Part shown: piece after piece, positions 4,930 to 46,386 of the stretch | Position numbering within the stretch: the stretch's first letter is position 1 | Layout of the letters: each line of letters starts with the position of its first letter | DNA from: Dehalococcoidia bacterium | GTDB lineage: Bacteria > Chloroflexota > Dehalococcoidia > UBA2979 | Assembly: GCA_034406555.1 (NCBI GenBank) | Contig: DASCRM010000008.1 | Location: 1 to 62,042 of the forward strand | Length of the DNA: 62,042 bases | Direction of reading: 5' to 3' | The notes under the pieces: model-generated | What the model was told of the DNA's origin: nothing | What the model saw: only the letters and a program-made list of their open reading frames with translations | Databases searched by the model: none | Position numbers and translations under genes: made by a program

Positions 4930-4964
4930 TCCGCGTCGGAGATTCGGCGCACGGAGGTGGACTG

Positions 4965-6403
<1,439 letters not shown>

Positions 6404-6407
<4 letters not shown>

Positions 6408-7060: not shown

Positions 7061-7198
7061 GACGGGCCTCGCTCTCTGCACGTCGCCGGCACGGCAGGGT
7101 GCCGGACGCGGCCATGCTAGCCCGCCAGCGTCCGCGCTGCATCGGTGCACGCGAGCGCCAGAACGCGACCCGGACGGATCGTGCTCTAGACTCGCGGC

Positions 7199-8512: not shown

Positions 8513-8931
8513 CGCTTGGAGTAGTCGATCGTCATCCAGCGCTCGATGCGCACGGTCGCGACGAGCGAATCGCTGTTCCCACCGGAGGCGTACTGACGGC
8601 CCTGCTCTTCGCCCAGATAGCGAGTCGCCAGCCGCAGGGTGAAGTTATCTTCAGCTGCCGGCCCGACGCGGGTGACGACACCCTCGACGCTGACGTACTT
8701 GTACGGGGATGTCTCCGTCTGGGCCACGAGGCTGACGCGTGTCCCCTCCGCGATCACCCTCGCCTTGTGGCCGCTACGGCCGTACGAGACATGGAAGTCG
8801 CCGCCGGGCTCGTAGAGGTACCAGATCGGTGCTGAGAGCGGCCCGCTCTCGCCATCGGCAATCGAAAGCACGCCGATGCGCACATCAGCGAGGAATGCCT
8901 CGCGCTCGCTCTTCGTCATGTACAGGGACAT
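8509..8931 (-). CDS. pyridoxamine 5'-phosphate oxidase (PPOX) family protein
   Basis: 140-aa product from the internal ATG at 8931 (MSLYMTKSEREAFLADVRIGVLSI...). The rest of track ORF 8509..9480 is a spurious Arg/Pro-rich extension. Confidence 0.6.
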   Translation of the reverse strand: MSLYMTKSEREAFLADVRIGVLSIADGESGPLSAPIWYLYEPGGDFHVSYGRSGHKARVIAEGTRVSLVAQTETSPYKYVSVEGVVTRVGPAAEDNFTLRLATRYLGEEQGRQYASGGNSDSLVATVRIERWMTIDYSKR

Positions 8932-8951
8932 CGATGGTCCTTCCGCTCTGG

Positions 8952-10042
8952 TTACTGGCCCTTGGCTGCGTCGCGCGCTGCGACCCGCTCGCGCAGCGCC
9001 GGGATCAACTCGTGGCCGAACTCTACCGCGTCGGGCAGCGGGTCGAAGCCGCGGATCAGGATGTGCTCGACGCCGAGATCGTAGTAGGCGGCGAGCGCGT
9101 CGGCTACCTGCTCCGGCGTGCCCACGAGCGCCGTCGTGTTGCCGGCGGCCCCGGTCGCGCCCGCCAGGGGCATCCATAGCCGCTCGTCGTGAACATCCGA
9201 GCGGGCCGCGAAGTCCAGCAGCCGGCGCGAGCCCTCGTTCGTGGCCTCGCCAAGCACCATCGAGGCCGGTCGGGCCGCTTCCACACGCTCCAGGATCTGG
9301 CGTGCGCGCTCCCACGCCTCGTCCTCGGTCGGGACGATGATCGGTCGCAGCGAGACGTGGAAGCCTGGTGACCGCCCGTGCCTCGTGGCCGCGTATCGTA
9401 TCTGGGAGATGCGTTCGCGGACGCCCTCCAGCGGCTCGCCCACAGCGCGTAGACATCGGCGTACTGCGCGCCGACCTCAATCGCCGGTGCGGACGCGCCG
9501 CCGAAGTACAGCGGTATCTGCGGCTCCTGCACCGGCTTCACGACGCTGAAGGCACCGGTGCAGCGGTAGAAATCGCCCGCATGGTCGAAGGGCTGGTCGC
9601 TGGTCCAGACGTGCCGCAGCACGTCCATGTACTCGCCGCTGCGCCGGTAGCGCATGTCGTGGTCGGCGTAGTCGCCGTCGCGCTGCTGATCGGCGTCGCT
9701 GCCGCCGCTGATGATGTGCAACGCGATGCGCCCGCCCGTGAAGCGATCGAGCGTCGCGGCGGCGCGCGCCGCCAGAGTCGGCGGCATGAAGCCCGGACGA
9801 TGCGCGATCAGGTAGCGCAGCCGGTTCGTGTGCCCGGCTGCGTAGCCGGCCACCTGAAACCCATCTGCGGTCGTCGATCGGTAGCCGATCAGCACGCGGT
9901 CGAACCCCGCCTGCTCGTGTGCGCGTGCGAACGCCGCCGTGAACTCGGGAGAGACTCCCGATGCGGTCGAGACGTGGACCGTCGATCCCTCTCTGCGGGA
10001 CTCATCCTGCGTGCCGATCATCCCGATGATCTGGACAGGCAT
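8952..10042 (-). pseudogene. luciferase-like (LLM class) flavin-dependent oxidoreductase, disrupted by a 1-nt frameshift
   Basis: The N-half is in the frame of ORF 9104..10117 (ATG 10042, MPVQIIGMIG...AQYADVYALW). The C-half is in ORF 8952..9443 (GEPLEGVRERI...). The expected junction ALW-GEPLEG needs one more G in the G/C run at 9439-9441. Confidence 0.7.
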
Positions 10043-16594: not shown

Positions 16595-17737
16595 CTACTT
16601 CACCGCCCCTGATGAGGTCAGCGCATCCGCCTCCTCGGCGCTGAAGCCCGCCTCACTCAGCAGGTCGCAGCTGTGCTGGCCGGCGTGCGAGGGCGGCCCC
16701 TGCACGGCGCTCTCCGTGCGGCTGAAGCGCGGCGCAGGGGCCGGCTGCACGACACCCGCAATGTCCACGAACGCGTTGCGATGCTTCGCGTGTGGGTGAT
16801 CGGGTGCTTCCAGCGGCTCAAGCACCGGCGCGAAGCAGACATCCGAGCCCTCGAGCACGGCCTCCCACTCGGCGCGCGTCTTCGTCTTGATGCAGGCCGT
16901 CACCGTCGCCTTCATGTCGGGCCACGCGTCGCGGTTGTGCTGCTCGCCGGTCAGCGTCGCCCCAAGCCCGGTCAGCTCCAGCATCTCCGCGTAAAACTGC
17001 GGCTCGATCGAACCCAGCGAGACCCACTTGCCGTCGGCGGTCTCATACGCGTCGTAGTACGGCGAGCCCGTGTCGAGCATGTTCGAGGCGTGCTCAGGCG
17101 ACCAGCCACCGCTGGCGAGCCCGGCGTGCAGCGAGGTTCCCAGCACGCTGGCGCCGTCCACCATCGCCGCGTCGACCACCTGGCCCTTGCCGGACGTCTT
17201 CGTCTCCAGCAGCGCCGCGACCATCCCGAGCGCCAGCAGCATCCCGCCGCCGCCGAAGTCCCCGACGAGGTTCAGCGGTGGCACCGGCGGTCCGCCCGCG
17301 CGCCCGATCGGTGCGAGCACGCCCGCCAGCGCGATGTAGTTGATGTCGTGCCCGGCCATCTGCGAGTAGGGGCCTTCTTGCCCCCAGCCCGTCATTCGCC
17401 CGTAGACCAGCTTCGGATTGCGCTCCAGGCACACATCCGGGCCCAGCCCCAGCCGCTCCATCACTCCCGGCCGGAAGCCTTCGAAGGCAGCGTCGGCGCC
17501 CTCGATCAGTCGCAGCGCGACCTCGACGCCCTCTGGCTGCTTGAGATCGAGGCCGATCGACCGACGCCCCCGCGCCAGCAGGTCGCCCGGCGGGTCGTCG
17601 GGGTCGCCGCCGCGCACGCGTTCGGCCCGGTCGACGCGGACCACGTCGGCCCCCATATCAGACAGCATCATGCCGCAGAACGGTCCCGGGCCGATGCCCG
17701 CGAACTCGATGATCCGAATGCCCTCAAGCGGTCCCAT
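16595..17737 (-). CDS. family III CoA-transferase (CaiB/BaiF; alpha-methylacyl-CoA racemase-like), single module
   Basis: Internal ATG (MGPLEGIRIIEFAGIGPGPFCGMMLSDMGADVVRVDR). GHDINYIALAG and NLVGDFGGGG motifs. Confidence 0.85.
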   Translation of the reverse strand: MGPLEGIRIIEFAGIGPGPFCGMMLSDMGADVVRVDRAERVRGGDPDDPPGDLLARGRRSIGLDLKQPEGVEVALRLIEGADAAFEGFRPGVMERLGLGPDVCLERNPKLVYGRMTGWGQEGPYSQMAGHDINYIALAGVLAPIGRAGGPPVPPLNLVGDFGGGGMLLALGMVAALLETKTSGKGQVVDAAMVDGASVLGTSLHAGLASGGWSPEHASNMLDTGSPYYDAYETADGKWVSLGSIEPQFYAEMLELTGLGATLTGEQHNRDAWPDMKATVTACIKTKTRAEWEAVLEGSDVCFAPVLEPLEAPDHPHAKHRNAFVDIAGVVQPAPAPRFSRTESAVQGPPSHAGQHSCDLLSEAGFSAEEADALTSSGAVK

Positions 17738-17902
17738 GTGGCTGTCCTCTCCTACATCGATCGTGGTGGTGCGCTCGCACCTCGGCACACTCTACGCCGC
17801 AACACCGCCTGCTGTGACGAGGCGAACGACCGATCGGCGCGCGGCGACGGCACGAGGCGCGACGAGATTTCGCTATCGCGCGTGCGTCGGAAGGGCGCCG
17901 GG

Positions 17903-19237
17903 CTAGCCGGCGGTGGCTGGAATCTTCAGCCCCAGTTGGTCGCGCAGCGTCGGCCCGCTGTACTCCTCGCGGTAGAGCCCGCGTCGTTGCAGCTCCGGCA
18001 CGACCAGGTCGACAAAGTCCTCGAACGCGCCGGGGATGTGCGTCGGACCGACCACGAAGCCGTCGCAGGCCGGGCCCGTGAACCAGTCCTCCATCTGATC
18101 GACGATGTCGGTCACCCCGCCGACCCAGCCGTCGCCGACCCGCCCGCGACCGGTCACACGCATGAAGTCGCGCACGGTCGGGTTCTTGATGCCGGAGCGG
18201 GTGATCACGCCATCGCGCATCGCCTGCATGCCCTGTATCCCGTCGAGCTCCTCGTCGCTGAACGCTTCGTCCATGCCCTTGGTGCCAAAGTCGAAGTTCA
18301 GCGCCTCAGAGAGCAGCGAGAGTTGATCGATGTCGTTCGGCAACTCGTCGTAGGCGGCTTTCTTCTCTAGCGCCTCCGCACGGGTCTCCGCGACGAACGG
18401 GTACATCAGCGTGGTGATCCGCATCTGCTCCGGGTCGCGACCGTGGGAGGCGGCCGCGTCCTTCATCTCCTGGTACTCGATCTTCCCGTTCTCGACCGTG
18501 CCGTATGCCGCGAAGATCAGCTCGCCCCAACGCGCGCCGAACGCCTGACCACGAGGGCTCATGCCAGCCTGGATCACCACCGGATGCCCCTGCGGAGAGC
18601 GAGGCACGGTGAACGGCCCGCGCGAGCGGTAGTACTGCCCCTCGTAGTCGATGCGCCGCACCTTTGTGGGGTCGGCGAAGACCATGTTCTCTTTGTCCAC
18701 GAGCACGGCGTCGTCGTCCCAGCTACCCCAGTGGCCGAGCACGATCTCCACGAACTCATCGGCCTGGTCGTAGCGCTCGTCGTGCGCCATGTGCTTCTCG
18801 CGACCCATGTTGCGGGCCTCGTTGTCGTTGATGGAGGTGACGACGTTCCAGGCGGCGCGCCCTTCCGTCATCAGGTCGACCGTGGCGATCGTGCGGGCGA
18901 CATCGAAGGGCTCGAAGTAGGTCGTCGACATCGTCGCGCCTAGCCCCAGGTTCGTCGTCGCCATCCCCATCGTCATCATCACGGCGACCGGGTCCATCTT
19001 CACGCAGCGGATACCGTGCTCCACCGTGTGCGCGTGGTCGCCCAGGTACATGTCGGGCATCGCCAGCCGGTCATCGAAGAAGCCGAGGTCGAACTTGCCC
19101 CGCTCCAGCACGCTCCCGATGTGGCGGTAGTAATCGGGCGACATCGAGTCGGTGCGCGCCTCCGGATGGCGCCACGCGGCGGGGATCGTTGTGCAGTTCT
19201 GAGCCTGGAGGAACCCAACGAGCGACATCTGGCGCAT
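17903..19237 (-). CDS. LLM class flavin-dependent monooxygenase (NtaA/SnaA/DszA group)
   Basis: ORF 17903..19312. ATG at 19237 follows AAGGGA (an alternative ATG is at 19228). Sequence MSLVGFLQAQNCTTIPAAWRHP...FDLGFFDDRLAMPD is typical of this group. Confidence 0.8.
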   Translation of the reverse strand: MRQMSLVGFLQAQNCTTIPAAWRHPEARTDSMSPDYYRHIGSVLERGKFDLGFFDDRLAMPDMYLGDHAHTVEHGIRCVKMDPVAVMMTMGMATTNLGLGATMSTTYFEPFDVARTIATVDLMTEGRAAWNVVTSINDNEARNMGREKHMAHDERYDQADEFVEIVLGHWGSWDDDAVLVDKENMVFADPTKVRRIDYEGQYYRSRGPFTVPRSPQGHPVVIQAGMSPRGQAFGARWGELIFAAYGTVENGKIEYQEMKDAAASHGRDPEQMRITTLMYPFVAETRAEALEKKAAYDELPNDIDQLSLLSEALNFDFGTKGMDEAFSDEELDGIQGMQAMRDGVITRSGIKNPTVRDFMRVTGRGRVGDGWVGGVTDIVDQMEDWFTGPACDGFVVGPTHIPGAFEDFVDLVVPELQRRGLYREEYSGPTLRDQLGLKIPATAG

Positions 19238-19375
19238 GAGACCGTCCCTTACAGCCGCTCCACAGGGTCGGCTGCGTGAGTGTAGTACGACGGAGCAAGC
19301 GCGCACGGCCACAGCACCCGGGCGGCCCTGCCACTGGCGGCGAGGTCACGAGGCTCTGCGCGCTCTACCGTGCTA

Positions 19376-21178: not shown

Positions 21179-21437
21179 CTGTTGCTCCTCGCTTATGGCG
21201 TGCGCTACCGGAGGCGGCTCGCCGCGCCCAATTATTATCCCAACAGGGGCTGCGCGTCCGCCGACGAACGTCATCCGCTGCGCAGCCGAAGGACTGGCCA
21301 TCGCCGATTCAGTCTCGACCCGCTCGTGACCCCTGCCATTGGTCTGGGACGTTTGGCCATGTCCGATCGGGTACACAGATGCCAGTATCGCGCTCAGATG
21401 GCAATATTCCGTCGCTGAAGGGGATCGGCAGGATTTC

Positions 21438-22937
21438 ATGACTACAACCGAGATACGCGAGACGGCACAGTCAACGCAGGTGGAACATTTCGACGTGTTG
21501 ATCGTCGGTGCCGGCATCTCCGGCGTCGGTGGGGCGTACCACCTCACCCAGCAGTGCCCGGACAGAAGCTTCGTCGTGCTGGAGGCGCTCGAAAGCTTCG
21601 GCGGCACGTGGCAGATGCACCGCTACCCCGGCATCCGCTCCGACAGCGACCTCTACACCTTCGGCTATCGCTTCAAGCCGTGGACCGGCCCCCCGATCGC
21701 CACCGCGCAGGAGATCCTCGACTACATGGGTGAAGTTGTCGAAGAGAACGACCTCGCGCAGCACATCCGCTACAACCACCGCATCACCACCGCACGATGG
21801 TCGAGCGACGACAACCTCTGGACCGTCGAAGCAACTGATGGCGATGGCGAGACGCAGCGCTTCACCGCCAACTTCCTCTGGATGTGCCAGGGCTACTACC
21901 GCCACTCGGAGGGCTACACGCCCGAGTGGGAGGGCATGGACGACTTCCACGGCGAGATCGTGCACCCGCAGACCTGGCCGGAAGACCTGGACTACGCCGG
22001 CAAGAAGGTGGTCGTGATCGGCTCCGGCGCCACGGCCGCCACTCTGGTCCCCGCGATCGCGGGAGACTGCGAGCACGTCACCGTGCTGCAGCGCTCGCCG
22101 ACCTATTTCATCCCCGGCCGCAACGTCAACGACCTGGCCGACACACTACGTGAGATCGAGATCGACGAGGAGTGGGTCCACGAGATCGTGCGCCGGAAGC
22201 TCCTGTACGACCAGTCGATCTTCACCCAGCGATCGTTCGATGAGCCCGAGAAGGTGAAGAGCGAATTGCTCGGAGGGGTGCGCGCGTACCTCGGTGACGA
22301 CTTCGACATCGAAACGCACTTCACCCCGACCTACCGCCCCTGGCGACAGCGCATCGCCTTCGTCCCTGACGGCGACATCTTCGAGGGCATCAAGTCTGGT
22401 AAGGCGTCGATGGTGACGGATGAGATCGACCGCTTCACCGGAGCGGGCATCCTGCTCAAGTCTGGCGAGGAGCTGGAGGCCGACATCATCGTCACCGCCA
22501 CCGGCTTCAACATGAGCGTGCTCGGCGACATCGATGTGGTGATCGACGATAAGCCGCTCGTCTTCTCCGACACCGTCAACTATCGCGGCATGATGTTCAC
22601 CGGGATCCCGAACATGCTCTGGATCTTCGGCTACTTCCGCGCCAGCTGGACGCTGCGTGCTGACCTGCTCGCCGACTTCGTCTGCCGCCTGCTGCAGCAC
22701 ATGGACGAGAAGGGCGTCAGCCGCGTCGACGTCGCACTGCGACCGGAAGACAAGGACATGGAGTTGCTGCCGTGGATCGACTCGGAGAACTTCAACCCCG
22801 GCTACCTGATGCGTGCCCTGGAGCTGTTGCCGAAGCGAGGTGCCAAGCGCGAGTGGCAGCACACCCAGGATTACTGGCGCGAGAAGGACGAGATCCCCGC
22901 GATCGACCTCGATGGCCCGGAGTTCGTCTACAGGTGA
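21438..22937 (+). CDS. type I Baeyer-Villiger (flavin-containing) monooxygenase
   Basis: Internal ATG (MTTTEIRE...). GxGxxG (GAGISG), BVMO fingerprint FxGxxxHxxxWP (FHGEIVHPQTWP) and a second dinucleotide motif GSGATA. Confidence 0.85.
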   Translation: MTTTEIRETAQSTQVEHFDVLIVGAGISGVGGAYHLTQQCPDRSFVVLEALESFGGTWQMHRYPGIRSDSDLYTFGYRFKPWTGPPIATAQEILDYMGEVVEENDLAQHIRYNHRITTARWSSDDNLWTVEATDGDGETQRFTANFLWMCQGYYRHSEGYTPEWEGMDDFHGEIVHPQTWPEDLDYAGKKVVVIGSGATAATLVPAIAGDCEHVTVLQRSPTYFIPGRNVNDLADTLREIEIDEEWVHEIVRRKLLYDQSIFTQRSFDEPEKVKSELLGGVRAYLGDDFDIETHFTPTYRPWRQRIAFVPDGDIFEGIKSGKASMVTDEIDRFTGAGILLKSGEELEADIIVTATGFNMSVLGDIDVVIDDKPLVFSDTVNYRGMMFTGIPNMLWIFGYFRASWTLRADLLADFVCRLLQHMDEKGVSRVDVALRPEDKDMELLPWIDSENFNPGYLMRALELLPKRGAKREWQHTQDYWREKDEIPAIDLDGPEFVYR

Positions 22938-22988: not shown

Positions 22989-24311
22989 CTAGTCGAACTG
23001 GCTCTCCGCCGGATCCAGCCCGTAGTGGTCCCGCAGCGTCTCGCCCTCGTACGCCGTGCGGAACAGTCCGCGCTGCTGGAGCAGCGGCACCACGTCGGCG
23101 ACGAAGACCTCGAGCATCGAGGGCAGCAGTGGCGGCATCACGTTGAAGCCGTCAGCCGCGCCATCAGTGAACCAGTCCTCCATGAAGTCGGCGACCTGCA
23201 CCGGCGTACCGATGAAGGTGTAGTGCCCGCGCGCGCCGGCGAGGACAGCCAACAACTGGCGCATGGTCAGCCCCTCACGTCGCACCAGCCCCACGATCAC
23301 CTCGGTGCGGCTGCGCGCCGCCTCCACGGTGTTCGGGTCGGGGAAGTCGTCGGGCGTGAGTGGCTCGTCGAGCAGCAGGTGCGAGAAGTCGTACCCGCCG
23401 AAGCGCCCGGAGAGCCGTCTGCGCCCGACCTCCGGATCCGCGAGCGCGTTGAGCTCGTCGGAGAGCTTCTGCGCCTCGGCCTCGGTTGAGGCGATCAGGG
23501 GGCTGAAGCCGGGCAGCACGAGCACCTGGTCGGTGGAGCGCCCCTCCGAGATCACCCGCGACTTGAGGTCGGCGTAGAACTCCTGCGCGGTCTCCTTCTC
23601 CAGCTGCGCGGTGAAGATCGCCTCCGCATGCCTCGCGGCGAACCCGCGGCCGGTGTCCGACGAGCCGGCCTGGATCAGCACCGGCCGGCCCTGCGGAGAG
23701 CGAGGCAGGTTGAGCGGCCCGGCGACGCGATAGTGTGTGCCCTCGTGGTTGATTGGGCGGATGGGCTCCGCTTGCGGCGAGTCTTCGCTCGCACGGTCGT
23801 CCAACCGCGCATCGCCAGGCCAGCTGTCCCACAGCCCCTTCGCGACCGTCATGAACTCTTCGGCGCGCTCATAGCGCTCGGCGTGGCTCACCTGATCTGT
23901 ATCGCCGTAATTGCGAGCGGCCGGCGCCAACCACGAGGTGACGATGTTCCAGCCGACGCGGCCGCCGCTGATGTGATCGATCGACGCGAACTGGCGCGTC
24001 AGGTTGAAGGGCTCCGAGTACGTCGTCGAGACCGTCCCGATCAGGCCGATCCGGCTTGTAGTCACCGCCAGCGCCGACAGCAGCGTCAGCGGCTCCAGCC
24101 CCGCGCGAGCGCCGTCCTTCAGATCGGTGCCGATCGCCAGCTGGTCGGCGAGGAAGAGCGAATCGAAGAGCCCGGCCTCCGCCTTCTGTGCTAGGTCCTG
24201 GTAGTAACTGATCTCGGTCAGCGGCAGCGACGATGAGGCGGGGTGGCGCCAGGACGCCTCGTGATGCCCGCGACTGTGAATGAAGAGGTTGAGGTGCATC
24301 TCCCGTGCCAT
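22989..24311 (-). CDS. LLM class flavin-dependent monooxygenase (NtaA/SnaA/DszA group)
   Basis: Internal ATG 24311 (MAREMHLNLFIHSRGHHEASWRHP...). Paralogous to 17903..19237. Confidence 0.8.
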   Translation of the reverse strand: MAREMHLNLFIHSRGHHEASWRHPASSSLPLTEISYYQDLAQKAEAGLFDSLFLADQLAIGTDLKDGARAGLEPLTLLSALAVTTSRIGLIGTVSTTYSEPFNLTRQFASIDHISGGRVGWNIVTSWLAPAARNYGDTDQVSHAERYERAEEFMTVAKGLWDSWPGDARLDDRASEDSPQAEPIRPINHEGTHYRVAGPLNLPRSPQGRPVLIQAGSSDTGRGFAARHAEAIFTAQLEKETAQEFYADLKSRVISEGRSTDQVLVLPGFSPLIASTEAEAQKLSDELNALADPEVGRRRLSGRFGGYDFSHLLLDEPLTPDDFPDPNTVEAARSRTEVIVGLVRREGLTMRQLLAVLAGARGHYTFIGTPVQVADFMEDWFTDGAADGFNVMPPLLPSMLEVFVADVVPLLQQRGLFRTAYEGETLRDHYGLDPAESQFD

Positions 24312-24496
24312 CGCGCTCGCCGCCTCTCCATGGTCGCCCATCAGCGAAGCCGATTCTACCGGGTCTCCGGCACATCGGTGCAGTCGACGTGTTTGATGCC
24401 ATCGGCGAAGGGCGGGCGAAAGCGTGTACGATGCGGCCGGGTCAGCCGCGCAGCGGTGACGAACTACCACCACGACGAACATGAATGGGGGGAGCG

Positions 24497-25021
24497 ATGA
24501 GCACAGTCTCATTCATCCAGGCCAGCCTCGAATTCACGCACAACGCGCTGTTGGACGCCCGCAACGGCACCGACGAGCAGCTTCACTTCGTGCCCGAACA
24601 GGGCAGTCACTCGATCGCGTGGTGCCTCTGGCACACGTCCCGCATCGAGGACCTGATCATGAGTCGGGTGGCCGGGCAGGACGCCCAGTGGAGTCAGGAC
24701 TGGGCCGACAAGACCGGTCTGCCGTTCGATGGCTTCGGCACCGGGATGTCGGACGACGACGCCCGCGAAGTGCATGTCACCGATATGGACGCACTGAACG
24801 CCTACCAGGACGCCGTCTTTGCACGCACCGCGGACTTCCTCGCAAGCGCGAGCGACGAGGACCTTGAGCGCGAACTCCCGGCACGCAACGGCACGGAGAC
24901 CGTCGCGCAGGCGATCTCACTGCACATGATGGGCCACTTCAACGGCCACCGAGGCGAGATCAACACGTTGCGAGGGATGCAGGGCATGCCGACTGTGATG
25001 GCGGCGCAGGGCACCCACTAG
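24497..25021 (+). CDS. DinB family protein
   Basis: ATG 24497 is preceded by GGGGGGAG. His-containing helices (WCLWHTSRIEDL, HMMGHFNGHRGE) fit the DinB/YfiT four-helix metal site. Confidence 0.65.
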   Translation: MSTVSFIQASLEFTHNALLDARNGTDEQLHFVPEQGSHSIAWCLWHTSRIEDLIMSRVAGQDAQWSQDWADKTGLPFDGFGTGMSDDDAREVHVTDMDALNAYQDAVFARTADFLASASDEDLERELPARNGTETVAQAISLHMMGHFNGHRGEINTLRGMQGMPTVMAAQGTH

Positions 25022-26382: not shown

Positions 26383-26694
26383 TCAGCTCTCCGCTGCATG
26401 TCGGACAGTGCTCCCACAGCACGTAGTCGTACGGCCCCACGTATGCACGTCGTCGCCCTGCGACTCGACGACGTTGGAGCAGCCGGGGCAGTGCCAGCGG
26501 TACGAGCCGAGGCCGACAACCTCCAGCTCAACCTGCTCGCCCCACCAGCGTCTGAGGCCCTGCATCCCGGCCTCGCGACTGGGGAACGGCGATTCGCGCT
26601 CGTTGTAGCTGAAGTGCGCGGCGGCCGCTTCGATGAACTCGTCGAACGTGCGGATCAGCGGCCCCTCGGCGCCCTCGGCATCTTGCGAGGTCAT
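26383..26694 (-). CDS. hypothetical small Cys-rich protein (possible Zn-ribbon)
   Basis: 103-aa product from ATG 26694, which overlaps the stop of the upstream fused CoA-transferase by 4 nt (ATGA). C-terminal HCPGC...TCCGS cluster. No family recognised. Confidence 0.45.
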   Translation of the reverse strand: MTSQDAEGAEGPLIRTFDEFIEAAAAHFSYNERESPFPSREAGMQGLRRWWGEQVELEVVGLGSYRWHCPGCSNVVESQGDDVHTWGRTTTCCGSTVRHAAES

Positions 26695-29168
26695 CCGCGA
26701 GCGCTGGCGGCTGTCCCCGGTTCCCGCGCCGTCAGCCACGGGTCGTCCGGGATCGGGTCCAGCTCCGTGATCGCGCCCTGCTCCAGCAGCCACTCCATGG
26801 CGAGCGCGGCGCGCAGCGTCTGCAACGGCTCAAGCTGATGCCCGCTGACGGCATCTGCCCGCAGCTTCGCGATCTGATCCGCGTCGTATCCCAGTTCGCC
26901 CAGCACCTCGTCGGTGTGTTCGTCGAGCAACGGGGCGGGCGACGACGACGACGCGACGAACGTCTCGAAGCGAGCACCGAGGAAGCGGTGGTACAGCTTC
27001 TTGCCGACGCGCGGGTGGTCTGCCGGGAAGAAGTAGTCGCGCCCTCGAAGCTGCGGGTCGCGCAAGAGGTCGCGCCCGTTCTGCACCACGGCTGCTGGAA
27101 CGCCGCTCGCCTGCAGCAGCTCCATCACCTCGAACGGATCGCGCGTCTCGCACCACGTGCCGATCGCCGCGTCCAGCTCATCGACCCGCTCGCGCCGGGC
27201 GGGGAGATCGAGGCCCGCGAGCTGCTCCGCGCCGACCAACCGAGCGAGCGCGGTCCATTCGTCATCGTCGCGCGCCGTGATCGCGACCCAGCGGTCGTTG
27301 CCTGCGCACGCGTAGCAGCCCTGTGGAGCGAAACGCTCGTGTCGGTTGCCCAGCCGGGGCGCCAGCTCGCCACTGAGCTGGTAGTCGACGATCCGCTCGG
27401 CCATGAACGGCAGCACGGCGTCGCGCTCTGCGAGGTCGATGTAGAGCGCCCCCTTGCGTTCCCCGCTCTCGCGCTGCTGCAGCGCGTGCACGATCGCCCC
27501 GGCGGCCAGTACGCCGGAGATCGGGTCGGTGTACGCGAGCCCGCTCTTGATCGGCCGCTCGCCGGCGTAGCCGATTGTCGAGGTGATCCCCGACTCGGGC
27601 TCCAGCGCGTGTCCGTAGGCAGTGCGGTTGCGGGCCGGGCCGTCCTGCCCGTAGCCGGAGAGCGAGACCATCACCAGCTCGGGGCTGACAGCCAAGAGCT
27701 GGTCGTAGCCGAGCCCGAACTGCTCCATCACCCGTGGCCGGAAACTTTCCATCACCACATCGGCGTCTGCCACCAGCTGGAGGAAGACCTCTTTGCCCTC
27801 GGGTGCGTTTAGATCGAGGGTGATCGCACGCTTGCCGAGGTTCTTTTCGATGAAGTACCCACCGTAGTCCCAGTAGTCCGGATGCCCCTCGTTTCGGTCC
27901 TGTACGAGCGCCCGCACGGTGTCGGGACGACGAGGCGACTCGATCTTCACGACCTCCGCACCGAGGTCGGCGAGGATGCGCGAGGCGGCCGGTCCGGCCC
28001 ACACCCACGAGACATCGACGATGCGGACGCCTGCTAGCGGCTTCCCCGCCGGCTGCCCGCCACTCGTGCTGCCGATGCCGCCCGCCGCAGGCTCGAACGT
28101 CTCGTCGCTGTGTTCGCCGATCGCTGGGTACGATGCTGAAGCAGCGGCCGAATTCGACGTGCGGAAGGCGGGGCCAGGGACAACCACCTCGCGACCGTCG
28201 ATCGCGGTCGGCAGGAAGTACTCGCGGTGGATCAGCTGCTCGTCCTTCAGCAGGTCCGGCACCTCCAACACCGCGCCGAACGGCACGCCGAGCTCGTCGC
28301 ACGCCGTAATGATCTCCTTGCGCGTGTGTGCCGCGAGGAACGGGCGCAGCAAGTTGAAGAAGTCCTCCGCGTGCGTCAGCCGATAGCGAGGGTCGGTGAA
28401 CAGCGGGTCGTCGACGAGTTCGGGCCGGTCGATCAGGATCGCCAGCAGCGTCCCGGTGCCGGGATGCACGCCGATGTGCCCGTCCTTGCAGGGCAGCACC
28501 TCGCCCTGGATGCCCCATGGCACGCGACCGTGGAAGCGGGCGCGCACCGCGCCGGTGTAGTTGTAGAGCGTGCAGGCCATCTCGGCGGTCGCAGCGACAG
28601 CCTCGAACAGCGTCGTCTCCACCCGCTGACCCTCGCCGCCCTCGCGCTCCCGCAGCAGCAGTGCGGCGGCGGTCGCAGTGTAGGCGTGGATGCCCGCGAT
28701 GTACGCGGGGTGGTCGCCCGGAATCGAGAGCGGCTCGCGACGCGGAGTGCCGGTGATACCCATGATCCCGCCGAGCGCCAGCAACTGGATCGACTCCGCC
28801 TCGTAGCCGGCGTACGGCCCGTCGAGGCCGAAGTCGACGACCCACGAGCGGATCGCCCGCGGGTTCCACTCGCGCAGTTGATCGTCATCGATGCCCGCGG
28901 CAGCCAGTTCCGGCCCGCAGACGACCGCGTCGCACCACTGCACCAGCGTGCGCAGCCGCTCGCGCCCGTCCGAGCTGTCGAGGTCGATGCTCACGGAGCG
29001 CTTGCCGCGGTTCAGCGAGGCGAAGAGCCCGCCACTTGCTCGCTCGCGTGTCGCATCACCCTCGGGCGGCTCGACCTTCACGACGTCCGTGCCGTGGTCG
29101 GCGAAGAGCTGGCCGGCGAACGCACCGGCGATGCCGCGCGAGGTCTCAAGCAGTCGTAGCGCGGTCAC
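26691..29168 (-). CDS. tandem-fused double family III CoA-transferase (two CaiB/BaiF modules in one chain)
   Basis: 825 aa. Module 1 runs from GIAGAFAGQLFADHGTDVVKVEPPEGD to IGEHSDE. After a Gly/Ser linker, module 2 runs from VRIVDVSWVWAGPAASRILADLGAEVVKIESP to LLDEHTDEVLGELGY. Confidence 0.85.
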   Translation of the reverse strand: MTALRLLETSRGIAGAFAGQLFADHGTDVVKVEPPEGDATRERASGGLFASLNRGKRSVSIDLDSSDGRERLRTLVQWCDAVVCGPELAAAGIDDDQLREWNPRAIRSWVVDFGLDGPYAGYEAESIQLLALGGIMGITGTPRREPLSIPGDHPAYIAGIHAYTATAAALLLREREGGEGQRVETTLFEAVAATAEMACTLYNYTGAVRARFHGRVPWGIQGEVLPCKDGHIGVHPGTGTLLAILIDRPELVDDPLFTDPRYRLTHAEDFFNLLRPFLAAHTRKEIITACDELGVPFGAVLEVPDLLKDEQLIHREYFLPTAIDGREVVVPGPAFRTSNSAAASASYPAIGEHSDETFEPAAGGIGSTSGGQPAGKPLAGVRIVDVSWVWAGPAASRILADLGAEVVKIESPRRPDTVRALVQDRNEGHPDYWDYGGYFIEKNLGKRAITLDLNAPEGKEVFLQLVADADVVMESFRPRVMEQFGLGYDQLLAVSPELVMVSLSGYGQDGPARNRTAYGHALEPESGITSTIGYAGERPIKSGLAYTDPISGVLAAGAIVHALQQRESGERKGALYIDLAERDAVLPFMAERIVDYQLSGELAPRLGNRHERFAPQGCYACAGNDRWVAITARDDDEWTALARLVGAEQLAGLDLPARRERVDELDAAIGTWCETRDPFEVMELLQASGVPAAVVQNGRDLLRDPQLRGRDYFFPADHPRVGKKLYHRFLGARFETFVASSSSPAPLLDEHTDEVLGELGYDADQIAKLRADAVSGHQLEPLQTLRAALAMEWLLEQGAITELDPIPDDPWLTAREPGTAASARG

Positions 29169-29205: not shown

Positions 29206-29838
29206 TCAGGCCAAAGGGATGCCGAGCAGCTCCGGTGCGAGTTCAGCGCCCAGTTCCAGCGCCTGCTCGTTGACTGGGATGAAGCGGTGGCGGCCCGGCC
29301 GGATCGCGTCGTGCAGCGCCAGCTTCGCGCTCTCCTGACTGACGATGCCGGTGCGCTCGATCAGCGCGCCGAGCAGGATCATCGCCGCCATCAGCGGGTT
29401 GCCAAAGTGCTCCGCCGAGAGCTCGGTCGCGGAGAGTTCGATCACGTCCAGATCCTCGCGCGCGACACGCGTCTCGCCGGTGGTCGTCGCGCCGTCCGCT
29501 TCGTAGCGGAAGCGCTGCACCTCGCGCACGGAACGGTTGTAGACGACGAGGCCGCCGGACCGCACCATCCCCTCGTAGCGGGTGAGGCCGTTCGGGTCCA
29601 TCGCGAACAGCGAGGCGCAGGGCTGCTTGATCAGCGGCGGGGTCGTGATCTCGGTCTCGCTGAGGGCGACGATGCAGTCCGAGACGCCCCCGCGCTGCCC
29701 GCCATCGAAGAGGCTGTAGTAGAGCGCGCGCTTGCGCTCGTAGACCGCTGCGTTGGCCAGCGTCTTGCCGGCCACCTGGATGCCCTGGCCACCGATGCCC
29801 GCCAGCAGCACCACCTGGTCCTCGTTCGTACCGACCAT
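29206..29838 (-). CDS. 2-oxoacid:ferredoxin oxidoreductase, gamma subunit
   Basis: Internal ATG 29838 (MVGTNEDQVVLLAGIGGQGIQVAG). GxGGQG motif. Last gene of a delta-alpha-beta-gamma set. Confidence 0.8.
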   Translation of the reverse strand: MVGTNEDQVVLLAGIGGQGIQVAGKTLANAAVYERKRALYYSLFDGGQRGGVSDCIVALSETEITTPPLIKQPCASLFAMDPNGLTRYEGMVRSGGLVVYNRSVREVQRFRYEADGATTTGETRVAREDLDVIELSATELSAEHFGNPLMAAMILLGALIERTGIVSQESAKLALHDAIRPGRHRFIPVNEQALELGAELAPELLGIPLA

Positions 29839-29842
29839 CGCG

Positions 29843-30634
29843 CTAGCCTTTCGTCGCAAGCGGCTTGATGTCGCCGACGGGATTCTGCGCCACGATCACC
29901 TCGCCCTGGAACTTATTCGCCTGCACGGGGGTCATGCTCCAGCTCGTCGGACAGGTGGTGAGCAGGTCGACGAAGGCCATGCCGCGCCCCTCCAGCTGGC
30001 AACGCAACGCGTTCGCGATCACCTTCTGCGTGCGGTACGCGTGCGCGGGGTCATGCGTCGAGGCGCGCGCGACGTAGCCCGTGCCCGGCATCTGCGCCAG
30101 CATCTCCGCGACCGGGATCGGGTGTCCGTGCTGCGCGACCTCGCGGCCGCCCGGCGTGGTGCTCGAGGGGATCCCGATCGACCCGGTCGTCGTGAGCTGT
30201 CCGCCGGTGTCGGCGAGCACGCCGTTGTTGTACATGAAGACGGAGATGTTCTCCGCTCGAGCGGCCGTGTGGAACGTCTCGTTCAGCCCCTCCATCGCCA
30301 CGCCGCCGTCGCCGATGAAGACGCAGACGATCGCGTCCGGGAGGATGCGCTTGATGCCGGTGGCGACGGCGATCGTGCGGCCGTGACCGCCGACGGTCGT
30401 CTCGATCTCCAGCTGCGCCGCGACCTGCGTCACACAGCCGATGTCCACGACGCCGATGATGCGAGTGTCCGCAGGGAGCTTGTCGAACTCCGCGTTGAAG
30501 GTGCGAGGGAGGATGCCGTAGCCGCAGCCCGGGCACCACGCCTGATCGGGTACCTCGGCGGCGTCCGGGCCACCAAAGACCGGCACCATGTCTTCGAGTT
30601 TGATGCCGGCGGGGACTCGCGGTTCGGTCGTCAT
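29843..30634 (-). CDS. 2-oxoacid:ferredoxin oxidoreductase, beta (TPP-binding) subunit
   Basis: 263 aa with CPGCGYGI and a GDGG TPP motif (FIGDGGVAMEG). Confidence 0.85.
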   Translation of the reverse strand: MTTEPRVPAGIKLEDMVPVFGGPDAAEVPDQAWCPGCGYGILPRTFNAEFDKLPADTRIIGVVDIGCVTQVAAQLEIETTVGGHGRTIAVATGIKRILPDAIVCVFIGDGGVAMEGLNETFHTAARAENISVFMYNNGVLADTGGQLTTTGSIGIPSSTTPGGREVAQHGHPIPVAEMLAQMPGTGYVARASTHDPAHAYRTQKVIANALRCQLEGRGMAFVDLLTTCPTSWSMTPVQANKFQGEVIVAQNPVGDIKPLATKG

Positions 30635-31782
30635 CAGGACGCTCCCAGCTTCTTGTACTCGGCGCGGACTTCCGCGCTCACCTCGGCGAGCGTGGGGACG
30701 ACGCCTCCGGGCCTCGCGTAGAGCAGCGGGTGCTCGCCGAGTGCCAGCCTCACATCCTCGGCCATCTGTCCGACGCTCAGCTCCACGACCATGATTGTGC
30801 TGCTCTTCGCCTCATCGACCAGGATCTGCTCGGGGAACGGGAACAGCGTCTGCGGCCTGATCAGGCCGACATCCAGCCCGTCCGCACGCAGCTCATCGAC
30901 GACGACGCGCACGATGCGGGCCATTGTCCCGATCGCGACCAGGTTCAGCTTCGCGCCTTCGGTGCGGTATCTCTCCGCCTGAGGCTCGACGACCTTGTAG
31001 CGCTCCCAGCGGTCCCACGCGGCAGTTTCGAGGTAGAGGAAGCGGCTGGCGCGTTCCTCCTCCGGGACGGCCTCTGACGAGGACGAGACGCCACCCTCGT
31101 CGCGGATCTCCGCGCGTTGCACGGGACGCTCGCGTGGCCCTCGCTCGCCCGTCAGCGCGCGCTCGCGCAGGCCGGGATTGATCCGCGGCGGCAACGCGAC
31201 GACCTCCGTGGATTTCGCGATGCTGTAGTCGGTGTAGACCGTGACCGGCCCGCGAATCTGCTCCGCGACATCGAAGGCGTGGTAGGTGAAGTCGACGAGT
31301 TCCTGCACGCCCTGAGGTGCGAAGACGATGTTGCGGAAGTCGCCGTTGGCGGGCGCCTTCACGGCCTGCCAGTAGTCGCCCTGTGACGGGCTACCGGTCG
31401 GGCCGGTGCCGGGACCGCCCCGTACCCAGTGCGAGATCACCAGCGGCACGCCGTCGCGGGCGGCGTACGAGACCATCTCGCCCATCAGCGCGATGCCGAC
31501 GCCGGTGGAGCCGACCATCACGTGCGCCCCGGCCTTGCTCGCGCCGTACGCGTACCAGCCGCCCTCCATCTCGCTCTCGCACGTGAGGCTGATGGCATCG
31601 TACTCGGGCGCTCGCTTCAGATACTCCTCGTTGACCTCGTTGATCGGGGTCATCGGATAGACGCTGAAGAGCTTGCAGCCGGCGCGCAGCACCGTCTCCG
31701 CCAGCGCTTCCTCTGCGCTCAGGAACGCGAACTCGGGCGCGTCCGCATCGCTCGTTGCCGCCGTCGCCGTCACATCAGGCAT
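30634..31782 (-). CDS. 2-oxoacid:ferredoxin oxidoreductase, alpha subunit
   Basis: Internal ATG 31782 (MPDVTATAAT...FSVYPMTPINEV). It overlaps the delta stop by 8 nt and the beta start by 1 nt. Confidence 0.8.
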   Translation of the reverse strand: MPDVTATAATSDADAPEFAFLSAEEALAETVLRAGCKLFSVYPMTPINEVNEEYLKRAPEYDAISLTCESEMEGGWYAYGASKAGAHVMVGSTGVGIALMGEMVSYAARDGVPLVISHWVRGGPGTGPTGSPSQGDYWQAVKAPANGDFRNIVFAPQGVQELVDFTYHAFDVAEQIRGPVTVYTDYSIAKSTEVVALPPRINPGLRERALTGERGPRERPVQRAEIRDEGGVSSSSEAVPEEERASRFLYLETAAWDRWERYKVVEPQAERYRTEGAKLNLVAIGTMARIVRVVVDELRADGLDVGLIRPQTLFPFPEQILVDEAKSSTIMVVELSVGQMAEDVRLALGEHPLLYARPGGVVPTLAEVSAEVRAEYKKLGAS

Positions 31783-32020
31783 TGATCGCCTCCAGCGCCT
31801 CTCGCGTCGCGCGGAACACCGTGATCGCGACATCCGGACAGATACGGGCGCACTGCATACAGCCGGTGCAGTTGTCCTGCACCATCTCCGGCAGCATGTA
31901 GCCGCGCTTGCTCATCGTCTTGCTCATCGCCAGCGTGTCCTCGGGGCAGTAGGGGACACAGAGCTCGCAGCCCTTGCAGCGCGAAGCATCGATCTGGATG
32001 TAGCCAACGGTTCGTGGCAT
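31775..32020 (-). CDS. 2-oxoacid:ferredoxin oxidoreductase, delta subunit (2x[4Fe-4S] ferredoxin)
   Basis: 81 aa from ATG 32020, with two CxxCxxCxxxCP motifs (CKGCELCVPYCP, CTGCMQCARICP). Confidence 0.85.
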   Translation of the reverse strand: MPRTVGYIQIDASRCKGCELCVPYCPEDTLAMSKTMSKRGYMLPEMVQDNCTGCMQCARICPDVAITVFRATREALEAINA

Positions 32021-32146
32021 GGCCGGGCTCCTCACGCTGCTGCGACGGCTGGATACTACCTCAGCAGGCGAGCTTCGTTGAGTTGCCCCACGTCAGAGAA
32101 GGCCTTGCCTGTGGATGTTGGCTGAGGTTGCCGCCGCGAGCGGGCC

Positions 32147-38455: not shown

Positions 38456-38947
38456 CTACTGCCGGGACTTCAGTTCGGCGTCTGCCGTGGGCCGAAACTG
38501 AGGCAGCGTGATCTCGTCGCTCATGTCCTCGAATATCACTTCCACCGGCATCCCGCAGTAGATGTCACTCAGCTCGCACTCACGCATGTTCGTTGTGATC
38601 CGAACCGTGTCGCTCTGCGCCTCGGCCGGCGTGACCTGCAGCACCGCGTACGGTTCGTCGAAACTCGGCGTCATCAGGCGACGGTCGATCACAAACGTGT
38701 AGACAGTCCCCAGCCCGCTGAGCTGCGGCCAGTCGAAGTCGCTGGCGCCGCACTGCGCGCACTGTTCCTGCGGCGGGTGCTGGTAGTCCGAGCACGCGCG
38801 GCACCGCTGGATGCGAAGCTCATGCTTGCGGGCGGCGTCCCAGTACGGCCTGCTGATATCGTCCGGCAGCGGGACGGGCCTGACACCCATCTCCTTCAGC
38901 TGTTCCTGGCCCTCGCGCGTCTGAACGTTGGGAGTCTCGGACGTCAT
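38456..38947 (-). CDS. Zn-ribbon/OB-fold protein (DUF35 family)
   Basis: 163 aa with a four-Cys ribbon (CRACSDYQHPPQEQCAQCG) followed by an OB-like segment (GTVYTFVIDRR). Sits directly downstream of the thiolase-like gene. Confidence 0.75.
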   Translation of the reverse strand: MTSETPNVQTREGQEQLKEMGVRPVPLPDDISRPYWDAARKHELRIQRCRACSDYQHPPQEQCAQCGASDFDWPQLSGLGTVYTFVIDRRLMTPSFDEPYAVLQVTPAEAQSDTVRITTNMRECELSDIYCGMPVEVIFEDMSDEITLPQFRPTADAELKSRQ

Positions 38948-38971: not shown

Positions 38972-40111
38972 CTACTTGACGGAAAGAATTCCGGCCGCCC
39001 CGGTGTAGGGGAAGACGGAGGAGATGATCGAGGTATTGTGGTTCTTCGCCTGTCGCACGCCCGCTGTCCCGCGTAGCTGCTGTGTCGCCTCCAGCAGGTG
39101 CCCCATCCCATGCAACCGGCCCTCCGAGAGCTGCCCCCCGTGGGAGTTCACCGGATGCTCCGCGCCAATGCGGATGTTGTCGCCGCCCTTGATGTAGTCG
39201 CCTGCTTCCCCACGCCCGACGAGGCCGAGGTTCTCCATCCACATCGAGGCGAAGAAGCTGAAGCCGTCGTACGGGAACCAGACGTCCATCTCCTTCGGGC
39301 CGAGGCCCGCGTCGCGATAGAGCTCCTCTGCCAGCGGCGTGATCCCCTCCAGCGGTTCCGCCACCATGTGATCCAACGTGCGAACCTGCGACGCTGCCCA
39401 CGCCTTCAGGTAGACTGGCGGGTGCTTCAGGCCCTTCGCGATGCTGTCGCGGGTCATCAGGATCGCGAACGCGCCGTTCACCGGCATGTCGCAGTCGAAC
39501 AGTCGCACTGGCTCGGCGATGTAGCGCGCGGCCATGTAGTCGTCGATCGTCATCGGCGTCTTCATCACAGCCCATGGGTTGAGCAGCGCGTGCTCGCGCT
39601 CAACGACCGGCAACCAGCCCATGTCCTCCTCGGTGTAGCCGTAGCGGTGCATGTAGGCGCGTGCGTTGAGACCCACCCGTTGCATGCTGTAGCCGAGGCC
39701 GTAGGGCACCTCGAACTGCGTGGGGCCGGCGACGCCGCCTGAGCCGGGGTCGATCTGCGGCGTCGTGACCGGGGCGATCGTGTTCATGATCTTGACGATC
39801 AAGACCTGGTCGCACTCGCCCGCCTCGATCGCCAGCGCGGCGATCCCGCACGGCTCGATGCCCATCCCGCCCTCGCGCTGCCAGCGTACGTCCTTCATCC
39901 CCAGCCCGCTTACGATGTCCGCCGTGTCGGGCGCGGGGTAGTGGTGCACCTGTGGGTTGATACCATCGACGTCGGCGGGGTCGACGCCGGCGTCCTCGCA
40001 CGCCATCCGGCAGGCCTCGATCGCCAGCTCTGTCTCGGGGCGCTCAAGCTTGCGTGTCGCGTTCGTGTAGCCGCAGCCGACGAACGCTATCTTTTCCCGG
40101 GTCTTCGCCAT
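38972..40111 (-). CDS. thiolase-like protein (SCP-x / lipid-transfer-protein type)
   Basis: Internal ATG 40111 (MAKTREKIAFVGCGYTNATRK). 379 aa with thiolase-fold organisation. Pairing with a DUF35 gene is typical of this subgroup. Confidence 0.75.
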   Translation of the reverse strand: MAKTREKIAFVGCGYTNATRKLERPETELAIEACRMACEDAGVDPADVDGINPQVHHYPAPDTADIVSGLGMKDVRWQREGGMGIEPCGIAALAIEAGECDQVLIVKIMNTIAPVTTPQIDPGSGGVAGPTQFEVPYGLGYSMQRVGLNARAYMHRYGYTEEDMGWLPVVEREHALLNPWAVMKTPMTIDDYMAARYIAEPVRLFDCDMPVNGAFAILMTRDSIAKGLKHPPVYLKAWAASQVRTLDHMVAEPLEGITPLAEELYRDAGLGPKEMDVWFPYDGFSFFASMWMENLGLVGRGEAGDYIKGGDNIRIGAEHPVNSHGGQLSEGRLHGMGHLLEATQQLRGTAGVRQAKNHNTSIISSVFPYTGAAGILSVK

Positions 40112-40184
40112 CGACGCCAGTCCTTCTCTCGCTATCTGCCCCGACGTACTTCCCCGACGCACTCTACGCCCCTGCCACGAGTCG

Positions 40185-45108: not shown

Positions 45109-45204
45109 GTCACTGTCCGTGAATTTGCGGTGCGCTATGCTGCCGCCGGTCGGTCAGAGGCTGCGTCTCCCACGTACGCCGAACCACGGAGTGGAGTGAA
45201 TCCC

Positions 45205-46386
45205 ATGTTGGCTCTCGAACATATTCGCGTACTCGATCTCTCACGGCTGGCGCCGGGGCCCTATTGCTCCATGCTGCTGGCCGATATGGGCGCCGACGTG
45301 CTGATGGTGGAAGCGCCGCCACAGTTCGTCTCCACCCGCCCGACGGCATCCGACCCGGAGGAGAGGGAGCGTCAACGTGCGGGAAACGCGCTGCGTCGCA
45401 ACAAGCGCTCGCTCGTTCTCAACCTGCGCGAAGATGCCGGGCGCGAGGCCTTCTACCGCCTCTGCGCCGACGCCGATGTGGTGCTCGAGGGGTTCCGCCC
45501 CGGGGTCGTCGACCGACTGGGCGTCGACTACGAGACGGTGAGCAAGCTGAACGACCGCATCGTGTACTGCTCGATCTCCGGGTACGGCCAGACGGGGCCG
45601 TACCGCGACCTCGTCGGACACGACATCAACTACATATCGGTCGCCGGCGCGCTCGGGATGATCGGTCGCAGCGGGCAGCCGCCGGCCATCCCGCACAACC
45701 TGCTCGCCGACTTTGCAGGCGGCGGACTGACGGGCGCGTTCGCGATCGCCGTCGCGCTGCTCGCTCGGGAGCAGACGGGACGCGGCCAGTACGTCGACAT
45801 CGCGATGTCCGACGGTGTGATGCAGCTGATCGGACCGTTGATCGGTGGCGTGCTGGCAGGGGCCGTACCACCCGGACGAGGCGAGACGCGCCTCTCTGGC
45901 GGTTCGCCGAACTACGACGCCTATGAGACCTCAGACGGTCGATGGATCTCGATCGGGTCGGTCGAATCGTACTTCTGGGACGCGCTCTGCGATGTCGTCG
46001 GCCGACCCGACTTCAAGCCGTTCGAGTACGACTCGACGAAGTTCGACGAGATTCGAGCGCACTTCGAGATGACCTTCAAGCAGAAGACCCGCGACGAGTG
46101 GTTCGAGGAGCTACGCGAGATCGACCTCTGCATCTCGCCCGTGCTCGATCTGGACGAGGCGGCCAACGACGAACACAACCGCGCGCGTGGCATGGTCGTC
46201 CAGGTGGAAGACCCGGTCGTTGGCAGAGTTCGGCAGATAGGCATTGCGCCGAAGCTCTCCGAGACGCCGGGGGCCGTGCGCTCGACCGCACCCGCGATCG
46301 GCGCGCACTCGGACGACGTGCTGAGCGGCATCGGCTACTCGGCGCAGGAGATCGACGCGCTACGGCAACAGAACGTGGTCGCCTAG
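45205..46386 (+). CDS. family III CoA-transferase (alpha-methylacyl-CoA racemase-like), single module
   Basis: Internal ATG 45205 after GGAGTGGAG (MLALEHIRVLDLSRLAPGPYCSMLLADMGADVLMVE). GHDINYISVAG and NLLADFAGGG motifs. Divergent from the 17-gene array. Confidence 0.85.
   Translation: MLALEHIRVLDLSRLAPGPYCSMLLADMGADVLMVEAPPQFVSTRPTASDPEERERQRAGNALRRNKRSLVLNLREDAGREAFYRLCADADVVLEGFRPGVVDRLGVDYETVSKLNDRIVYCSISGYGQTGPYRDLVGHDINYISVAGALGMIGRSGQPPAIPHNLLADFAGGGLTGAFAIAVALLAREQTGRGQYVDIAMSDGVMQLIGPLIGGVLAGAVPPGRGETRLSGGSPNYDAYETSDGRWISIGSVESYFWDALCDVVGRPDFKPFEYDSTKFDEIRAHFEMTFKQKTRDEWFEELREIDLCISPVLDLDEAANDEHNRARGMVVQVEDPVVGRVRQIGIAPKLSETPGAVRSTAPAIGAHSDDVLSGIGYSAQEIDALRQQNVVA

Follow-up and report, generated by a model that had tools for sequence, protein, structure and literature searches.

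Do three long open reading frames (ORFs) in the genome of a Dehalococcoidia bacterium each encode, in one polypeptide, the whole interlocked pair of subunits that makes up a family III coenzyme A (CoA)-transferase, and are the two halves equivalent? The ORFs, here called A, B, and C (Table 1), lie on contig DASCRM010000008.1 of assembly GCA_034406555.1, in a stretch of 62,042 nucleotides that we analysed as a whole and refer to as the window. We consider it likely that A, B, and C belong to the two-domain type III (family III) CoA-transferases and work as single-chain pseudo-heterodimers with one active site. The subunits of the usual interlocked dimer would be joined head-to-tail through a short, poorly conserved linker. 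The C-terminal module (C-module) would be the canonical catalytic subunit, and the N-terminal module (N-module), from which the catalytic Asp has been lost, probably has a structural part, as the partner by which the ring-through-ring dimer and its single active site are completed.

An earlier note on this DNA had described two complete CaiB/BaiF modules in each of the three genes, and our domain searches bore this out. All six modules matched the Pfam family PF02515 at full length. The N-terminal halves, scanned alone, spanned positions 1–4 to 365–366 of the 366 profile positions with 228–274 bits against a gathering cut-off of 23.3, and the C-terminal halves spanned positions 1–366. Two genuine modules, and not only one, are thus present in each protein. 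The modules are joined by a linker of 20–35 residues. The sequence GxxxGxxLADxGAxVxKVE is found near the N-terminus and (G/D/S)EHxxE near the C-terminus of every one of the six modules, and the sizes of the proteins also agreed with the 772–848 aa given before.

The window has about 68% G+C, and the gene list was picked by the G+C content at third codon positions (GC3). The start of B at 42503 was given correctly, as this TTG is preceded by AAAGGAG and the public gene calls also have 772 aa; the longest ORF of B reaches 42713 but runs into the end of C. For C, both TTG 45108 and GTG 45063 are possible starts, and its orthologues have about 836 aa. A six-frame scan with the family hidden Markov model (HMM) revealed exactly five family III genes, equal to eight modules, all within 16595–46386, which confirmed the count of eight modules within 30 kb. 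The two single-module genes included in that count (S1 and S2) do carry PF02515, but they resemble alpha-methylacyl-CoA racemases and not transferases.

A, B, and C are single ORFs without an internal stop. Protein A was found in identical form on eight contigs from the European Nucleotide Archive (ENA), Logan, and NCBI assemblies, with the same neighbours, and its nearest genome is a Dehalococcoidia metagenome-assembled genome with 77% identity. Protein C was found with 13 member sequences. Homologues were taken as the best 120 database matches for each of the three proteins; nearly all of them are about 670–910 aa long, and the majority align over more than 90% of the query. The named sources in these lists are Dehalococcoidia, Chloroflexota, a SAR202 cluster bacterium, Acidimicrobiia, Pseudonocardia, and Mycobacterium. 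Because the same protein occurs in independent assemblies and full-length homologues number in the hundreds, we regard A, B, and C as real genes.

The answer to the second part of the question depends on the catalytic Asp. This residue was located by HMMER alignments to YfdW ('GDSNTG'), YfdE, 4ed9, SUGCT ('MTD'), and BbsF ('YTD'), and the eight modules of the window were aligned with the reference enzymes by MAFFT. The Asp equivalent to Asp169 of Frc/YfdW is present only in the C-modules (D548 in A, D547 in B, and D617 in C). At the same position the N-modules have Ala155 in A (HPAY), Glu158 in B (IAEY), and Tyr185 in C (QGYR); the codons of the residues at this position in A, B, and C were checked against the DNA. 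D548 of A aligns with the 'YTD' of BbsF and the 'MTD' of SUGCT and lies in an invariant column of the family A alignment. MAFFT moves the Asp of C by one column, and the ungapped comparison of 'YPD' with the 'YTD' of BbsF sets it right.

The homologues gave the same picture. The C-module Asp is aligned in 120 of the 121 sequences of family A, the sole exception being protein C with its one-column shift, in all 118 of family B, and in 114 of 116 of family C. The corresponding N-module column contains E 71, A 17, D 8, and others in family A (n = 121), S 59, A 30, E 13, and others in family B, and Y 34, D 26, N 10, E 10, and others in family C. The two modules are unequal, and the asymmetry, with the Asp only in the C-module, holds across three large subfamilies. 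It suggests that each chain has one active site, where the acyl-aspartyl anhydride and the aspartyl-CoA thioester, as intermediates of the family III mechanism, would arise on D548, D547, or D617.

Among enzymes of known structure, the best sequence and fold matches were obtained with BbsEF (PDB 9fn0 and 9fol), which, like the split gene pairs described below, is collinear with the N- and C-modules. BbsE/BbsF-type enzymes use succinyl-CoA as the donor and a dicarboxylate as the acceptor, as in succinyl-CoA:(R)-benzylsuccinate CoA-transferase (BbsEF). The N-module of A matched 9fn0_A (BbsE) with an E value of 2.3e-27 and that of C with 2.6e-54, and the family A profile placed 9fn0_A on N-module positions 6–381 and 9fn0_B on C-module positions 395–797. 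Chain A of BbsEF carries 'QAYR' where chain B has the Asp. This is the motif of the N-module of C, in which 'Q-A/G-Y-R' aligns to the Asp of YfdW, YfdE, and 4ed9. BbsE therefore resembles the N-module of C in having an aromatic residue in place of the Asp, and BbsF resembles the C-modules in having it; PDB entry 9fol is titled 'BbsEF, D178-CoA adduct'. The succession of an E-type partner without the Asp and an F-type partner with it, in that order, is clear for C and A and weaker for B, which fits the BbsEF type less well. BbsEF and the split pairs consist of two polypeptides, whereas A, B, and C are each one ORF; the identity is only 25–39%, and no NCBIfam equivalog cut-off was reached by A, B, or C. 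We suggest that A and C are fused counterparts of the two-gene BbsE/BbsF-type enzymes.

Split pairs related to C were found by tblastn of C against plasmids. In Variovorax sp. SRS16, two collinear genes of 416 and 412 aa with 38.8% identity to C are followed by genes for a thiolase and a Zn-ribbon OB-fold (DUF35) protein, in the same order as in the window. The pair on plasmid 2 of Aromatoleum aromaticum EbN1 has 35% identity to C and adjoins UbiD/UbiX genes, in a locus that we take to be an anaerobic o-phthalate cluster with a succinyl-CoA:phthalate CoA-transferase. Both pairs have an ATGA stop/start overlap. In both, the first gene scores as N-type and encodes Phe or Tyr in place of the Asp, and the second scores as C-type and retains the Asp. 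Fused versions were found by the same search on plasmids of Rhodococcus, Paraburkholderia, and Mycolicibacterium. Since split and fused forms occur among close relatives, a fusion or fission of an E/F-type pair happened there. On plasmid 3 of Variovorax sp. SRS16 (locus 2611–10020), a fused 847-aa paralogue is located two genes upstream of the split pair, and this cluster has the fused and split forms side by side.

AlphaFold2 models of A and B were built with the family alignments. The mean predicted local distance difference test score (pLDDT) was 93.3 for A and 95.3 for B, and the predicted template modelling score (pTM) was 0.95 for both. The A model is less confident only at the linker (residues about 355–380, pLDDT 64–84) and the C-terminal tail. 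As a pTM of 0.95 was reached over about 800 residues, the modules are placed confidently relative to each other, which is what an intramolecular pseudo-dimer predicts. Foldseek against the PDB returned single-module matches only. The best were chains B and D of BbsEF, with a template modelling (TM) score of 0.90 when normalised to the target and 0.45 when normalised to the query, and further matches were SUGCT, Frc, YfdW, CaiB, and Rv3272. The modules superpose on full chains of BbsEF, SUGCT, or Frc with target-normalised TM scores of 0.8–0.9.

The earlier note had expected the whole interlocked pair in one chain. According to the models, one chain very probably forms the whole pseudo-dimer, and the N-module and the C-module would be threaded through each other within it, but the halves of this pair are unequal with respect to the Asp. 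No PDB chain longer than 456 aa was matched by protein A or by a profile of 113 family A sequences, and therefore a two-domain member apparently has no solved structure.

The description of the three proteins as paralogous is correct only in a distant sense. The full-length identity is 32% between A and C, 28–29% between A and B, and 28% between B and C, and the orthologues of each protein make up a large family of their own; on these grounds, we rejected recent tandem paralogues. Collinear alignments of A, B, and C score well above those with N- and C-modules swapped. In a neighbour-joining tree of the modules with 200 bootstraps, the A/C-type N-modules formed a clade (0.975), and their C-modules formed a clade together with BbsF (0.945). 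These comparisons indicate that A and C share one N/C differentiation with the BbsEF type, and the proposal of one ancestral fusion followed by duplication fits these two.

For B, the N and C clades of the family were sisters in the same tree (bootstrap 0.76). In hhalign, the N-module of B scored highest against the C-module of B (638), followed by 558 against the N-module and 499 against the C-module of A; the C-module of B scored 626 against the C-module and 521 against the N-module of A. The HMM cross-scores favour N-to-N and C-to-C correspondence, B included. The evidence on a single ancestral fusion for all three is divided, as the neighbour-joining tree and hhalign pair the two modules of B with each other, and the HMM cross-scores and collinear BLAST alignments favour the N-to-N and C-to-C pairing. 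B may derive from the fusion that gave A and C, or its modules may have been duplicated and fused independently, with the Asp of the N-module lost convergently.

The earlier note had also stated that characterised family III enzymes are homodimers or heterodimers, and this was mistaken. Two-domain enzymes have been characterised, namely DddD and PtmU4, and 2,401 two-domain homologues were counted in bacteria in 2017 (PMC6006322). DddD, a CoA-transferase/lyase, was the sole characterised two-domain member before the work on PtmU4, a two-domain enzyme that forms thiocarboxylic acids, and it has been placed as an outgroup to the remaining two-domain proteins (PMC6006322). PtmU4 relies on a conserved Asp in its C-terminal domain, and mutation of this Asp430 cuts the activity 125–400-fold (PMC6006322). 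A, B, and C have the tandem CoA_transf_3 domains and the poorly conserved linker by which that study defines the two-domain proteins, and with DddD and PtmU4 they also share the conserved Asp in the C-terminal domain.

Set against DddD and PtmU4 by description, A, B, and C differ from them in having neither a ddd context nor the context of a PtmA3-type acyl-CoA synthetase or a sulfur carrier. Among the window gene products scanned with Pfam, there was no AMP-binding/acyl-CoA synthetase domain and no ThiS/MoaD-like domain, as in a PtmU4-type cassette, and no ddd context (transporter and 3-hydroxypropionate-processing genes). Of the 360 homologues listed for A, B, and C, not one bears the name DddD. 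Frc/YfdW, CaiB, SUGCT, and YfdE have the same fold per module, and their Asp has the same position as in the C-modules. They consist of two identical subunits with two equivalent sites, whereas A, B, and C have unequal modules and one canonical nucleophile. Rv1866 of M. tuberculosis is presumably another two-domain member; a literature search on Rv1866 gave no informative paper. The fused architecture is already known and common, and A, B, and C are new, uncharacterised members.

Several observations weigh against a pseudo-heterodimer with a single active site. The N-modules retain an N-terminal CoA-binding-type motif, in which K31, E33, G37, D38, and R41 show a conservation of at least 90%. 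Where the Asp would be, the N-modules of family A most often have Glu (71 of 121), as B also does, and 26 of the 116 family C homologues have an Asp in the N-module as well. The N-module site may not be inert. In addition, the modules of B are closer to each other than to either A/C module type by the neighbour-joining tree and hhalign, which makes the BbsEF analogy weaker for B, and the chains may also form an intermolecular domain-swapped dimer. It is unlikely that the degenerate N-module is an active second site of a different chemistry, in which the Asp is often Glu and the CoA-binding-type motif is under selection.

We also considered that A, B, and C are bifunctional like DddD or PtmU4, with an N-module that performs a second reaction such as lyase, hydrolase, or sulfur-transfer chemistry. 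Both of the two-domain members characterised so far go beyond plain CoA transfer (PMC6006322). SAR202 genomes have a large expansion of CaiB/BaiF paralogues, some of which best match DddD, and novel lyase functions have been suggested for these paralogues (PMC5395668). The frequent Glu in the N-module and the conserved small protein with a CPGC motif behind A point in the same direction. The Pfam-scanned products, however, include no thioacid cassette, no dimethylsulfoniopropionate-type transporter, and no ddd context, A and C group with plain BbsEF-type transferases, and DddD has been placed as an outgroup to the other two-domain proteins (PMC6006322), which makes a bifunctional enzyme rather improbable.

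A true fused homodimer, in which both modules are active and each chain has two working sites, would be consistent with the two full-length modules, the retained CoA-binding-type motif, the Glu158 of B at the nucleophile position, and the Asp in both modules of some family C members. But A and C have Ala and Tyr at the nucleophile position, the N-module column is not conserved in any family while the C-module Asp is invariant or nearly so, and the PDB contains Asp169-to-Glu, -Ala, and -Ser variants of Frc. These variants have been reported as essentially inactive, which counts against two working sites, and we hold this reading to be very unlikely. Finally, a frameshift introduced in sequencing or assembly, at a junction of the ATGA type, could have merged adjacent subunit genes. 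In favour of this, the related split pairs overlap stop to start and are one indel short of fusion. This reading is almost certainly wrong and was rejected on the identical A in eight contigs from three independent assembly sources, the 13 member sequences of C, and the hundreds of full-length fused homologues across phyla, and also in view of linkers of a length unlike a bare junction and of the confident AlphaFold2 models.

Genes A, B, and C are part of one uninterrupted minus-strand gene string that spans 45108 to 25074 (Table 1). It begins with C, B, the thiolase-like gene, DUF35, LipB, LipA, E3, E1 alpha and E1 beta of the pyruvate dehydrogenase (PDH) type, and E2. It continues with a ferredoxin and the alpha, beta, and gamma subunits of a 2-oxoacid:ferredoxin oxidoreductase (OFOR), A, the 103-aa ORF, and an acyl-CoA dehydrogenase at the end, which is PimC-like below the cut-off.

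Table 1. Coordinates of the two-module genes, their modules, and neighbouring genes in the window
Feature	Position	Strand	Remarks
Gene A, two-module family III CoA-transferase, 825 aa	26691..29168	-	GTG start; two PF02515 stretches, whole-protein E 8e-161
A N-module, residues 4-354, BbsE-like	28107..29159	-	Ala155 (28704-28706) at the Asp position; Pfam, half scanned alone, E 2.7e-67
A inter-module linker, residues ~355-377	28038..28106	-	Gly/Ser/Ala/Pro-rich; between the two Pfam stretches
A C-module, residues 378-752, BbsF-like	26913..28037	-	Putative catalytic Asp548 (27525-27527, GLAYTDPISG); best PDB match 9fn0_B, E 9.8e-66
Gene B, two-module family III CoA-transferase, 772 aa	40185..42503	-	TTG start; two PF02515 stretches, E 2.5e-169
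B N-module	41403-42488	-	Glu158 (42030-42032) at the Asp position; Pfam, half scanned alone, E 3.6e-81
B C-module	40278-41327	-	Asp547 (40863-40865); Pfam
Gene C, two-module family III CoA-transferase, 848 aa	42562..45108	-	Length from TTG 45108; two PF02515 stretches, E 3.3e-168
C N-module	43864-45051	-	Tyr185 (44554-44556, 'QGY') at the Asp position; Pfam, half scanned alone, E 1.8e-72
C C-module	42640-43761	-	Asp617 (43258-43260); Pfam
103-aa ORF with CPGC motif	26383..26694	-	ATG overlaps the stop of A (ATGA); called in public assemblies
Ferredoxin and alpha, beta, gamma subunits of OFOR	29206..32035	-	Directly upstream of A; Pfam; NCBIfam VorB-like below cut-off
DUF35 Zn-ribbon/OB-fold protein	38456-38947	-	Pfam; best PDB match 6ok1_B ChsH2-DUF35, E 7e-21
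Thiolase-like protein	38972-40162	-	Directly downstream of B; Pfam; best PDB match 6ok1_A Ltp2, E 4e-50
Single-module gene S1, alpha-methylacyl-CoA racemase type	16595..17788	-	GHDINY + Asp; PF02515 E 3e-83
Single-module gene S2, racemase-like, divergent from C	45130..46386	+	PF02515 E 5e-105; start uncertain (45205 in the earlier note)

The thiolase-like protein and the DUF35 protein are Ltp2/ChsH2-DUF35-like, and a BbsAB identity of the pair was rejected, as BbsB was a weaker match (E 6e-21). A 2-oxoglutarate dehydrogenase as a local source of succinyl-CoA was likewise not supported, because the E1 alpha, E1 beta, and E2 genes are of the PDH type. The PDH-type 2-oxoacid dehydrogenase complex is complete and the OFOR has four subunits. 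The presence of an oxygen-sensitive-type OFOR beside a lipoate-dependent complex in this string (25074–45108, minus strand) is unusual. The link between OFOR, A, and the small ORF is kept around an A orthologue of 60% identity, and OFOR is also found beside the identical A. Behind this orthologue there is a homologue of the 103-aa protein with 55% identity over 55 aa (E 3e-23); the 103-aa ORF itself had no match in Pfam or NCBIfam.

The best PDB match of S1 is the MCR racemase of M. tuberculosis (E 5e-117), and the best PDB matches of S2 are also racemases (E 9e-66); both proteins have the GHDINY motif. Their racemase-like nature points to methyl-branched acyl-CoA substrates. Luciferase-like flavin monooxygenases, one of them only a 163-aa C-terminal fragment, and a Baeyer-Villiger-type monooxygenase were observed at 17903–19312, 22989–24512, 8952–9443, and 21339–22937, and an enoyl-CoA hydratase and a carboxyltransferase are also near. 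These genes match the repertoire reported for SAR202, in which monooxygenases are typical of the paralogue expansions (PMC5395668). Elsewhere in the window, radical-SAM genes lie side by side at 46383–48723 on the minus strand, a pair of which one member has a SPASM domain; their longest ORFs overlap by about 400 nt, and the downstream gene probably has a later start. A 1114-aa ORF at 52612–55956 on the minus strand unites CopC, CopD, and cytochrome c domains.

The fused architecture has been known from published work on DddD (2007/2014) and PtmU4 (2018) and is common in Actinobacteria, Chloroflexota, and Proteobacteria, so the novelty of the present proteins is low. The split/fused polymorphism, the asymmetry rule, and the lack of a solved two-domain structure are of modest interest. 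The asymmetry links the fused proteins to BbsEF-type heteromers and gives a simple annotation rule, by which they would be described as pseudo-heterodimers with one active site. With their high-confidence models, and with no solved two-domain member in the copy of the PDB that was searched, A and B suggest themselves as good structural targets.

As for their role, the genes nearby suggest that A, B, and C provide ATP-free CoA activation of unusual acids, which are probably branched, alicyclic, substituted, or dicarboxylic. Such activation would feed a pathway of beta-oxidation and retro-aldol type in a SAR202-like Chloroflexota genome. If the N-module were an active second site, the conserved string of ferredoxin-OFOR, A, and the CPGC protein would be an uncharacterised acid-activation pathway. 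In SAR202-type bacteria, this pathway and the string of C, B, the Ltp2-like aldolase/thiolase, and DUF35 would together process recalcitrant carboxylates of an alicyclic or branched structure. Three two-domain genes stand in one string with a 2-oxoacid oxidoreductase, a PDH-type complex, an Ltp2-like enzyme, and racemases. This gene string fits the proposed SAR202 strategy of activating unusual acids with CoA without ATP, and its products are candidates for biochemistry.

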